Part shown: positions 29,590 to 55,285 of the stretch, in pieces
How positions within the stretch are numbered: position 1 is the first letter of the stretch
Layout of the letters: the number at the start of each line of letters is the position of its first letter
NCBI GenBank assembly: GCA_964016885.1
Contig: OZ024740.1
Coordinates: 26,660,001-26,724,000 of the forward strand
Direction: 5' to 3'
Origin: Eledone cirrhosa
Lineage: Eukaryota
DNA: 64,000 nucleotides
Position numbers and translations under genes: made by a program
The notes under the pieces: generated by a model
The model's database searches: none
The model's input: only the letters and a program-made list of their open reading frames with translations
What the model was told of the DNA's origin: nothing

Positions 29590-29679
29590 TCCTCTTGATA
29601 AGTCGGCAGACCTCGCAAGGACTCTATATCTTTATGACATATTGTTTTTGTTTATGCCACGAAACTACGTAGTCGAGGA
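29590..29679 (+). ncRNA. Type I hammerhead, U3-A8 core variant (UUGAUAA), GUC cleavage site
   Basis: tcctc-TTGATAA-gtcggca...tgccac-GAAA-ctacgtag-TC-gagga: stem I tcctc/gagga, G-C closing of stem II, palindromic stem III. Confidence 0.8.
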
Positions 29680-30624
29680 ATTTAGGAGCAGTTTAGGTAT
29701 GATACATTTTATTACTAATTATATCTAAATGTTTCTTCTCTCTTCATAATGTATTTTTAACTCTGATACTGGTTCAGTCTAGTTCAACTGAATTGGTCTG
29801 TCCCAGTCATTCATTGAGCAACATCGGTGAAGTTGGCACCCTTAACTCACAGTTGGGTGCGAATGCATTCATGTATATATGTGTGTGTCCGCATGTATCT
29901 GTGTGTTTCTAAATATATTATATATATATATATATATATATATATATATATATACGTATTACATATTGAATAATATACAGAAACTTTTTGAAACATTTTA
30001 AAGGCTTTTTCCTATGAATTTTTATGTGTGACGAATGTTACACGCATACTTATAAACATAAGCGAAAGATTCTAGCTTATTTTATAGCCTCAGTGAAAAC
30101 AGAGAGTTACGTAGTCTTGATAACAGCTAATGAGTGGTAAACGATGCCATTTACGATTACGTCTCCTTGTGTTTGCTGAGGCTGTAGGTATGACGTAGAT
30201 CACAACCTTAAATATGCAAATGTTTCTCAAAACCACCGCTGATATTATTCAATATATAATACGTAAATTTATATGTATACTGCTATATAGGAACACTAAT
30301 ACAATATATATATATATATATGTATATATATAAAACGATCTATGTAACATCAGAATTCTTATTTTGTTATCCATCGTAACTAAAAACTACGATTGCTGAG
30401 AGCTTTCCCCTGCTTACTCCTGTTTTTTACCAAAACATTCTCTTCTGAACACAATATACATACATATATATATATATATATATATATATATATATATATA
30501 TATATATATATATATATATATATATATATAGAGAGAGAGAGAGAGAGAGAGAGAGAGAGAAAGATGAAATCGAAAATGCAACTGGAGTCTTATTTTTAAA
30601 AATATATATATATATTTATTTGGT

Positions 30625-30664
30625 TCATTTACCGGTTTCGCAGTTCTTCTGCTTTTCAAAAGTA
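30625..30664 (-). ncRNA. Type I hammerhead, U3-A8 variant (family P)
   Basis: Reverse complement of 30738-30777 with one stem I substitution. Confidence 0.65.
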
Positions 30665-30737
30665 GAGTTGAGATGGAGGGTCTGTGGTTTTTCTCACATC
30701 TGATGTGATAAAAACCACAGACCCTCCATCTCAACTC

Positions 30738-30777
30738 TACTTTTGAAAAGCAGAAGAACTGCGAAACCGGTAAAGGA
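30738..30777 (+). ncRNA. Type I hammerhead, U3-A8 variant (UUGAAAA; family P)
   Basis: tactt-TTGAAAA-gcag(aagaa)ctgc-GAAA-ccgg-TA-aagga. Confidence 0.8.
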
Positions 30778-31294
30778 ACCAAATAAATATATATATTTTT
30801 TTTTAAATAAGACTCCAGTTGCATTTTCAATTTCATCTTTTTTTCTTTATACTTTCACTCGTGTAGGACACCTCGGTTATTTTTCATTTTGTAAAAAAAA
30901 CGTCACTTTCTAATATATATATATATATATATATATATATATATATAAACTTATTAACCTGTAATTGTAAGATAGCATTGTGATTTTTTTTATTCATTTC
31001 TCACTTTCTAATTTTATATATTTTTGTATTTCTTTCTAGTACTTTTATTGTCTCCTACTCTCATTCGATTAACCTATTCTATAACCTCCCTCCTCCACTT
31101 CATACACTATCCTTAGAATCTGCTGTATACATATCACTTTCAACGCTTGCCCGCGCCACTCAATCCTCTATTGTTCTCCAGGCAAGTTCAGCCAACCCTA
31201 CCTCCCACCAAATGCCATGATAGACTTATTTGTGTTTACAACAAATTTTAACCAATCCTCTTGACAACTACAATCTTCCCATATAAGGAAGTAC

Positions 31295-31373
31295 CCCTTG
31301 ACAAGTTCGGCTATTTATTCACCAGGCTAAAAATTCTAATTTAGTCCAGAAATAGCCGTCGAAACGGCTTGAG
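31295..31373 (+). ncRNA. Degenerate hammerhead, U3-A8 variant (UUGACAA), long stem II
   Basis: ccc-TTGACAA-gttcggctattt..ggctaaa..tttagtc..aaatagccgtc-GAAA-cggc-TT-gag; stem I poor. Confidence 0.45.
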
Positions 31374-31424
31374 CTCTGCCGTCGGGGTCATACATTTTCA
31401 TATATATATATTTATGTAGGGACA

Positions 31425-31630
31425 AAAGATGAAATCGAAAATGCAACTGGTGTCTTTATAAGAATATTTATTTGCTTCCTTTACCGGTGTCGCAGTTCTT
31501 ATGCTTTTCAAAAGTAGGATTGAGATGGAAAGTTTGTGGTTTTTCTCGCATCTGATGCGAGAAAAACCACAAACCCTCCATCTCAATGTAGGACTCGTGT
31601 AGGACATCTCTTTTTGTTTTCATTTTGAAA
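31425..31630. mobile_element. Family P fold-back, older and internally deleted; HHR mutated (GACA)
   Basis: Same arms and same centre (cgcatc-t-gatgcg); the right arm jumps from catctcaa to gtaggac. Confidence 0.8.
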
Positions 31631-52609: not shown

Positions 52610-52920
52610 AACATTCGGTTATCAGAAAAAGGGAGGTAGGCTTAAAAGCCAAACTCGCTACGATCAAGTTAGTATTCGTGCCAACCCTTACCTATGAATC
52701 TTGGTTAATGACCGAAAGACTACGTAAGAATACGATCACGAATACAAGCAGGCGAAATGGGGTTCGTTGGAGGAATATTTGGAGTAACATTACTCGATAA
52801 AGTGCGTAGCTCGGAAATCAGGGAATCACTCCAGGTGCAGCTGCTACTTCTCCGATTTCAGATATCACAGCTCCCATACCATGAGCGTGTGAGTAGAACG
52901 TCCCAGGAAAGAAAAACAAA
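52610..52920 (+). pseudogene. RTE-clade LINE ORF C-terminal fragment
   Basis: KREVGLKAKL..FVPTLTY.ESWLMTER; QAGEMGF..IFGVTLLDKVRSSEIRESLQVQLLLLRFQISQL. Confidence 0.8.
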
Positions 52921-53194
52921 GTTAAGGGTGCATAATTACAATGTTATTCCTTTAAATTTCTTCAGAATGCTTATATATTTGTTGACGATATTTGGTAGAA
53001 ATATAAATTCAACAACGTAGATTATGATTATGTTCTTATAATTTTTAAAATAAAGGGATTAACAAACTTGTTTTTATACTTTTATTATAGAATTATTCTG
53101 TTCGGTAATGCCATCGTTTACTAATTAGAATGTATTTGCGGTTGTAGTAGGCTCAACATGAACATGGAAATGTTTCTTCATGCTGGTAATGATT

Positions 53195-53370
53195 AATTGT
53201 TTCTAGTTTTGGCACAAGGCTAGCAATTATTTCATTGTATTACTGGTACTTTATTTTATCGACCCTGTAAAGCAAAGTTAACCTCGGCGGGATTTGAACT
53301 CAGATCATAAAGGTGCGTAACTCTATGCTGAAAAGCATGGCGTCCGACCCTCTACCGATACTGCTAATTC
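53195..53370 (-). mobile_element. SINE family A
   Basis: ttttggcacaaggc...ctggtactttattttatcgacc...gcaaagttaacctcggcgggatttgaactcaga. Confidence 0.8.
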
Positions 53371-54522
53371 ACAATGATTAATATTAACTAGATTAATGTC
53401 ATAGATCTGTTATAGTCACGCAATATCATTTCCACAATTACAAAACACGAAAAACATTAATAGAATTTAAAATTTCCATTAACTTCCATCAACATAATTA
53501 TCGTCTCAACATTAAAAAATGTATCTGTAATATTTCATTCTAATATATGCATTATTAAGAAATATATAAGGAAACGAATTCGAGGGGCGTACAAATCTGT
53601 AATTATGCCGATACCGAAAAATCACTTGGGATCGCTCAATCAAATTCTGTATGAGGGCGTAACCATTTTGAATTATTTAACATGGTGTAAACTCTTTTGT
53701 TTACAGTGAGTATCGAGTTAGAGAAATGGGGAGATGAATTAATACCAAAATAGATTTTATGTTGAGTCTTGCATTTTATAAAGGCGATTTCAATTATCAT
53801 ATAGATATTATTTTATGCATTTATTTATTAATGTTCTTTATGAAGGTAGATATTCCGTGTTGATTGAAGGTATGGCACGAATTATATACGTTATCATATA
53901 TATATAAGTATATATATATATATATAAATATATATATATTTATATATATATATATATATATATATATATATATATATATATATATATATATATATATAAT
54001 GCAGCTGAAGCATTCTATGCACATATATCTTCTCATATGTATATATATATATATATATATACATACATACATACATTCATATGTATATGCAGTCCAGAAA
54101 TAGCCGTCAAAACGGCTTGAGCTCTGCCGTCGGGGTTAAACATTTTCCTATTACCCACTCTACTACCCTAAGTATTGAGTACTCGGGTGCGTTATAGTCC
54201 ATCTGGTTCGTTACCACACCTTCGTTAGACATATATATATATATATGTATGTATTTATGTATGTATATAAAATATAATTTATAATGTTTCTCAGAAGAAA
54301 CTCAATAAACTAGTTTAGAACATCCATAATATAAAATAATTGTAAACTACATAGAAATATCAATAAACCAGGATATAATACATATATACTTACACACACA
54401 TATATGTATATATATACATATAAGAACAAATACAATTTAAGATGTTAAATAAAAAAAAAACATTACTAACATAACGAATAAGTTATATTTAAATGACCGT
54501 GTCCTCCTAATATGACCACCAT

Positions 54523-54949
54523 ACAAATTTGTATTTTGGTCTAAATTCATATATATATATATATATTAAAGCCTTGTTTGTCTCTCAATTGTTCTTGGCA
54601 TGGTGAACTAACTGTTGTGTAACCACTTCTATATGTATATATATATATATATATATATATATATATATATATATATATATATATATATATATATACATAT
54701 TTATATATATATATACATATTTATATATATATATATATATATATATATATATATATATATATATATATATATATACATATTTATATATATATATTTATAT
54801 ATATATATATATATGTATATATATGTATATATATATACATATAGAAGTGGTTACACAACAGTTAGTTTACCATGCCAAGAACAATTGAGAGACAAACTAG
54901 GCTTTAATATATATATATATATGAATTTAGACCAAAATACAAATTCGTA
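54523..54949. repeat. Inverted repeat (about 112-bp arms) around a (TA)n tract
   Basis: 54523-54635 is the near-perfect reverse complement of 54838-54949. Confidence 0.9.
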
Positions 54950-55134
54950 TATATATATATATATATATATATATATATATATATATATATATATATTAGA
55001 AACTGAGGGTTTTTTTTACAAAATGAAAAATAACCGAGGTGTCCTACACGAGTGAAAGTATAAAGAAAAAAAGATGAAATCTAAAATGCAACTGGAGTCT
55101 TATTTGAAAAAATATATATATATAATTATTTGGT

Positions 55135-55174
55135 TCCTTTACCGGTTTCGCAGTTCTTCTGCTTTTCAAAAGTA
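55135..55174 (-). ncRNA. Type I hammerhead, U3-A8 variant (family P)
   Basis: RC tactt-TTGAAAA-gcag(aagaa)ctgc-GAAA-ccgg-TA-aagga. Confidence 0.78.
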
Positions 55175-55245
55175 GAGTTGAGATGGAGGGTCGTGGTTTT
55201 TCTCACGTGAGATGTGAGAAAATCCATGACCCTCCATTTCAACTC

Positions 55246-55285
55246 TACTTTTGAAAAGCAGAAGAACTGCGAAACCGGTAAAGGA
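55246..55285 (+). ncRNA. Type I hammerhead, U3-A8 variant (family P)
   Basis: tactt-TTGAAAA-gcag(aagaa)ctgc-GAAA-ccgg-TA-aagga. Confidence 0.78.

Follow-up and report, generated by a model that had tools for sequence, protein, structure and literature searches.

The window analyzed here comprises 64,000 nt of the 3.0-Gb genome assembly of Eledone cirrhosa (contig OZ024740.1, positions 26,660,001 to 26,724,000), is rich in (TA)n and other microsatellites, and carries a series of type I hammerhead ribozyme motifs whose cores have a U3-A8 pair in place of C3-G8. A 595-nt element, flanked by (TA)n, forms one non-coding insertion at 28503–29919, consisting of a partial tandem on the minus strand (28503–29357) and an inverted plus-strand copy (29354–29919). 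Its motifs, all with the core UUGAUAA, occupy 29590–29679 (plus strand, core at 29595, predicted cut after C17 at 29674), 29173–29262 (minus, core at 29257) and 28578–28667 (minus, core at 28662, 595 nt downstream of the preceding one). An earlier sequence-only reading had counted three copies, and three are present, but as a single tandem-plus-inverted insertion with two copies outside the segment 29590–55285 to which that reading referred.

Family P contributes minimal type I motifs with the core UUGAAAA, situated at 30739–30776 (plus, core at 30743) and 30626–30663 (minus, core at 30659, stem I of only 2 pairs), which form an inverted pair, at 55136–55173 (minus, core at 55169) and 55247–55284 (plus, core at 55251), which form another, and at 44366–44403 (minus, core at 44399, stem I of 4 bp). 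The sixth copy, at 31478–31515 (minus, 31511), is decayed, with A14C and a mismatch in stem II. The five intact copies and one decayed copy of the earlier account are all found, but they represent four places, and the copy at 30659 is intact only with its shortened stem I. Family S is represented by a plus-strand motif at 31293–31388 (UUGACAA at 31298, G12 at 31361, C17 at 31383), which is the 3′ end of a 5′-truncated Penelope-like element (PLE) with upstream homology over approximately 350 nt, and belongs to the oldest U3-A8 subfamily group of S. One more U3-A8 motif, UUGAUAA of family V at 26381–26425 (minus, closing pair of stem I damaged), was missed by the sequence-only reading. C3-G8 hammerheads are present in the window as well.

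In all named cases the slot from C3 to A9 between stems I and II holds the UUGANAA core claimed for it; GAAA, the UH box and an arm III that is palindromic or paired are in register with it, and the Watson–Crick 3-8 pair is U3-A8. Intact copies have U4 G5 A6, A9, G12 A13 A14, A15.1-U16.1 and H17, the core lying at a three-way junction open at stem I. With positions 3, 7 and 8 left free, the descriptor matched 8 U3-A8, 3 C3-G8 and 1 other motif in the window, compared to a mean of 0.06 and a maximum of 2 U3-A8 matches in 100 block-wise dinucleotide shuffles; the eight are not independent, the three 595-nt copies being one insertion and the P copies including two inverted pairs. Stricter descriptors fail on motifs whose stem II contains a bulge or mismatch. 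Family T and part of the V copies (G-U in arm III) escape the final descriptor, which also lets through a satellite artefact (4 matches at one locus, L168). The Rfam hammerhead model yielded no match in focused scans, nor any among the best 150 of 393 window matches listed, from which the C3-G8 motifs of the window are likewise absent. The S motif at 31298, described earlier as weaker, folds best among the ten motifs for which folding was computed (stem I of 5 bp, long stem II, stem III of 5 bp, z = –1.95). When two copies are cofolded, arm III pairs between them in all three families, 595, P and S, with a gain of 5.9–13.9 kcal/mol.

Genome-wide, exact-pattern matches (reversed-pattern controls all gave 0) amount to 11,820 copies for P, 6,165 for the 595 family and 6,843 for S with A8. 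The S motif lies approximately 640 nt past the stop of an open reading frame (ORF) with reverse transcriptase (RT) and GIY-YIG features, and the next tandem ORF begins directly behind it. This ORF has no Pfam match, and the Atlas comparison assigns it to clusters with HTH_animal, RVT_1 and GIY-YIG at 0.95–0.98, several of them annotated on under half of the members; a PDB search with a PLE ORF gave no match, and look-alikes of one retroelement protein from the window are mostly animal, often molluscan. The P motif follows a different GIY-YIG domain (Pfam, 2e-7; the only type of domain seen for P) at a distance of approximately 1,030 nt. In the fourth family, T, a near full-length element with one frameshift and a 2.7-kb 3′ region (L232:1452-7661) has U3-A8 motifs in both direct repeats and in one inverted copy. 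The layout of P, S and T is the one described for PLEs (Craig 2021), and insertions of P and S show Penelope-like habits, being 5′-truncated, tandem and inverted. At one locus (L097, G000:C3:68082000-68091999) tandem units of approximately 930 nt each carry one family P hammerhead, eight being seen. Of the 31 S 3′ ends in the random sample described below, 29 start within the hairpin of stem II, many of them arranged as short inverted pairs; this hairpin is a strong 5′-truncation hot spot, exemplified by L018, L037, L047 and L063 and by 23903–23975 and 54091 of the window, and sequencing depth jumps at 31351.

The 595 family is a non-coding tandem unit of 590–597 nt and 42% GC content with one type I hammerhead each, same-strand neighbours being 590–607 nt apart among the first 100 matches listed. 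At many loci it has two fixed 3′ ends, 80 and approximately 245 nt past the cut site, and the circular unit folds at –176 kcal/mol, compared to –134 ± 6 for mononucleotide shuffles. A search for sequencing runs containing this unit listed no RNA run. It resembles metazoan non-LTR retrozymes, as described in the passages cited from Cervera and De la Peña (2020, PMC7229834), in being non-coding and tandem with one type I hammerhead per unit, but differs from them in its longer unit (approximately 170–400 nt there), its U3-A8 core and its PLE-style inverted 5′ junctions, and we consider it a candidate large retrozyme.

The U3-A8 families had been called unrelated. A tree built from 18 GIY-YIG stretches rejects a common clade of P, S and T (approximately unbiased test, p-AU 3e-5; the constraint joined seven rows, including a P-like stretch where no hammerhead is seen), and C3-G8 families are nearer to S than P is; hence P and S stand apart as claimed, while a single origin of S and T is not rejected (p-AU 0.097). 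The tree shows at least two switches between the 3-8 states, whose direction is not readable from it because it is unrooted and short, with long branches.

A random sample of 119 stretches (1.19 Mb) gave 39 C3-G8 and 11 U3-A8 matches (four of the latter being one satellite artefact), 2 C3·A8, no U3·G8 and 6 others, compared to 1 C3-G8, 1 U3-A8 and 10 others in the reversed control. Counted as families matched at two or more loci of the sample and window, with T added and the satellite, one cluster lacking a consistent core and ten single-locus matches left out, the tally is 7 C3-G8, 4 U3-A8, one C3·A8 subfamily and no U3·G8 (Fisher p = 0.010, uncorrected for kinship). With 4 of 11 multi-locus families, U3-A8 is not rare in this genome, contrary to the earlier claim, and it was published in Penelope elements in 2014.

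Among the 11,820 individual P copies, 80 differ at position 3 and none is C3-G8. Position 8 is changed in 47 copies, a number equalled by position 7, which is free; this is neutral decay of copies, and copy-level counts of single changes were rejected as a test of selection. The genome count proposed in the sequence-only reading as a check is therefore uninformative in P, and in S it goes partly against the proposal (1,689 single-change C3·A8 cores vs 5,154 U3-A8). Such neutral variation, seen also in the 595 family (16 of 6,165 copies are non-U3), is what would be expected if U3-A8 were merely the chance state of a few master copies, propagated with no selection. This founder effect is already disfavoured and in our view very improbable, given that stems and core are conserved at the master level in S, that two separate PLE lineages carry U3-A8, and given the family tally above as a whole.

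Within family V, whose members share 83% over 182 nt of 3′ flank and include the C3-G8 motif of the window at 38206, both core states are present: a hand count of the first 100 of 2,595 matches gave 72 U3-A8, 23 C3-G8, 2 C3·A8 and 3 U3·G8. The 10.1-11.1 pair (G-C or A-U) and inner pairs of stem II change together, in few independent events, and the 3-8 states travel with subfamilies, the tree of the V flank being poorly resolved. Among the same 100 matches G10.1 is found in 68 of 72 U3-A8 rows and A10.1 in 23 of 23 C3-G8 rows; all five U3-A8 families (P, 595, S, T and V) have G10.1-C11.1, and several C3-G8 families have A10.1-U11.1. Epistasis or simple linkage are both possible causes of this association.

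Family S differs from the others in containing an amplified lineage with a single-change core. One quarter of its cores are C3·A8, compared to 32 copies with G8 (21 U3, 10 C3 and 1 A3). The C3 state is due to a substitution that leaves stem I intact, and is present in both repeats of near full-length S elements with long ORF pieces (L254, L257, L259), with another example at L062. An assembly artefact was rejected, as T>C at 31298 occurs in 29 independent contigs at approximately 9% of depth in run X1, which may be the assembled sample itself. A-to-I editing of A8, which would restore the pair, was also rejected, since C3 copies show no excess of G8 (10 of 1,699 vs 21 of 5,175, p = 0.31). A register shift with C3 pairing to G7, which is present in 95 of the 100 first-listed C3 rows, is not favoured: G7 could be no more than an inherited base, and a double mutant of the equivalent kind would rank as low-activity in the data cited from Roberts (2023).

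The S tree was built for 80 of 119 copies picked by pattern, with C3 over-sampled, 39 dropped as 5′-truncated, and positions 3, 7, 8 and 10.2 masked. It is a ladder of a U3-A8 group, two C3·A8 groups and two U3-A8 groups with mean end branches of 0.065, 0.055, 0.037, 0.030 and 0.028, respectively; a single C3·A8 clade is rejected (p-AU 5e-36, for groups read off the same tree). The order of end-branch lengths, from which the direction is taken, suggests a passage from U3-A8 to C3·A8 and back to U3-A8. Judged from this sequence record, the 3-8 pair appears favoured yet non-essential for transposition, S having apparently moved through two C3·A8 subfamily groups. Across the five groups, stems I and III, GAAA and UH (24 columns) kept their majority base throughout, while it changed in 11 of 33 columns of loop II and in 177 of 295 columns of the 5′ flank (Fisher 1e-9); the 5′ core, fixed by the search pattern, was excluded from these counts. 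A comparison of the two C3 groups finds all 35 columns of stems and core unchanged and 79 of 295 flank columns changed. Purifying selection on the hammerhead fold is thus supported by the joint switching in V and by the stem and core conservation in S. Of the selection for catalysis proposed earlier, the selection on the fold stands, while, with a quarter of S cores being C3·A8, that for catalysis itself does not follow from the sequences.

Conservation of stems and GAAA during the C3·A8 phase is also what one would expect if the fold were kept as a structural signal, e.g., for RT or endonuclease binding or for template handling at the 3′ end, with cleavage dispensable and both U3-A8 and C3·A8 tolerated. 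The S 3′ ends that begin inside the stem II hairpin fit this possibility, as do, in the passages cited, the inactivity of a natural CUGANAA hammerhead of Schistosoma mansoni (Stitz et al., 2021, PMC8490949) and the Naiad elements, which thrive lacking hammerheads, the role of the latter in endonuclease-containing (EN+) PLEs being called unclear (Craig 2021). Still, positions 3 and 8 form a Watson–Crick pair almost without exception, both between families and inside V, and by its tree S went back to U3-A8. A purely secondary-structure signal would leave selection on a tertiary pair of this kind unexplained, and we regard such a signal as unlikely, though it is the strongest of the alternatives. 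Less probable again is that C3·A8 copies are cut in trans, by the core of a dimer partner, with U3-A8 relatives, presumed to be expressed simultaneously, supplying the catalytic half. The cofold model does pair stem I and arm III across molecules, and none of the 21 columns of stem I, arm III and UH differs among the five S groups, but positions that serve only the catalytic strand (the 3′ side of stem II, G12, A13 and A14) were also kept in the C3 phase (0 of 14, vs 27% in the flank).

Replacement of C3-G8 by U3-A8 is known from other hosts. According to the passages cited from Cervera and De la Peña (2014, PMC4209133), it occurs in approximately 1,300 motifs of Cercyon Penelope elements of S. 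mansoni, and the UUGAUAA and UUGAAAA cores are found in Fig. S3, rows S. mansoni 3 and 4; natural U3-A8 core variants have in vitro activity according to earlier work quoted by Perreault et al. (2011, PMC3088659, as cited). The hammerheads studied here are like those of Cercyon in 3-8 covariation, type I topology, palindromic arm III, location in PLE terminal repeats, inverted neighbours and identical cores, and unlike them in host and PLE lineages, in the absence of an extra base after A9 in 595, P and S, and in the full stem III of S. In the 56 rows of that figure C3·A8 occurs in none and U3·G8 in one, whereas S has C3·A8. The compensatory swap is the same as in the variants of Perreault et al., with few examples there and thousands of copies per family here. 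Hence U3-A8 in Penelope hammerheads is already published (2011, 2014), and the host and the copy numbers are what is new; motifs of this kind indeed escape CUGANGA searches, as the sequence-only reading held, though a descriptor for U3-A8 was already published in 2014. For C3·A8, the S. mansoni counterpart is candidate 4 of the W-elements, a predicted hammerhead with the same core, which is a single inactive mutant copy, compared to amplifying masters with 1,689 copies in S. Roberts (2023), as cited, describes a type III hammerhead in which, of the changes made in this region, the C3G/G8C swap alone restored activity and all other single and double ones were low. The published data, so far as cited, point to low or no activity of C3·A8. 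No amplified C3·A8 lineage came up in our literature search, though two papers known by title, Lünse et al. (2017) and Przybilski and Hammann (2007), may give rates for C3·A8 or U3-A8.

We consider it probable (roughly 80%) that the terminal repeats of several Penelope-like families, and a 595-nt element likely moved by them, carry type I U3-A8 hammerheads which likely cut after position 17, slowly and mostly as dimers formed via the palindromic arm III, with the 3-8 pair favoured and non-essential for transposition. Cleavage, the use of dimers and the processing of tandem transcripts to unit-length or circular templates are what we infer from the motifs. In tandem or read-through transcripts two hammerheads would fold together through arm III, U-A substituting for C-G at 3-8, and the cut would yield unit RNAs, perhaps ligated and then copied by the RT of the element. 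Insertions run across the cut site, the 595-nt copies with their two fixed ends included, and therefore the template is uncut, multimeric or religated.

Several observations weigh against this interpretation. Monomer folds are no stabler than shuffles (z from –0.25 to –1.95), and stem I of family P has 3 bp. Minimal hammerheads of Penelope cleave weakly in vitro even as dimers (PMC4209133, as cited), and the low-activity set of Roberts (2023) would, from the part cited, include U3-A8. Among the loci examined the 595 family shows neither a link to an ORF nor PLE homology, its unit matching only itself and short fragments, and the covariation in family V may be one single switch. Finally, the 1,689 C3·A8 copies of S represent transposition in the absence of the 3-8 pair. 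The history of S would fit slow cleavage, trans cleavage or a structural role.

The remainder of the window contains further traces of retroelements. A C3-G8 hammerhead-like inverted pair at 37890–38241 (37890–37930 minus, 38201–38241 plus) has a 3′ flank homologous to family V, and approximately 1.3 kb upstream of its motif at 37925 lies a broken GIY-YIG endonuclease remnant of a PLE (39193–39787, minus), 73% identical to the remnant upstream of another C3-G8 copy of V (L288). A C3-G8 motif of another Penelope-linked family is located at 39917–39987 (plus), with more copies at 47394–47464 and 47682–47752. Frameshifted ORF pieces at 40189–42421 (plus), followed by a C3-G8 minimal hammerhead motif at 44051–44084, have no Pfam match but show features of a Penelope-type RT, as judged from its motifs. 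Together with motifs at 2128–2182 (minus) and 1697 (plus), the window holds at least four C3-G8 hammerhead families. Fragments of a non-LTR retrotransposon are seen at 5137–10433 and 57902–58483 (a weak RVT_1 match at 8024–8575; 9864–10433 is 76% like 57919–58483), and long inverted repeats unrelated to the named families, at 37058–37157 and 54521–54950, are probably more inverted retroelement ends.

For annotators, these results are a reminder to search for hammerheads with YUGANRA descriptors. For the biology of PLEs, S provides the same ribozyme in two matched natural forms, U3-A8 and C3·A8, whose relative ages can be read; since published assays, as cited, report low or no activity for C3·A8, the lineage amounts to an experiment of nature on whether self-cleavage is required by Penelope elements. 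We would give slightly less than even odds to the possibility that an autonomous Penelope lineage long transposed with a broken C3·A8 pair, keeping every stem and GAAA, and then restored U3-A8, which would show that the hammerhead has a role requiring little or no self-cleavage, or that it is cleaved in trans. If this is true, S captures in nature the C·A intermediate of the switch between C3-G8 and U3-A8.

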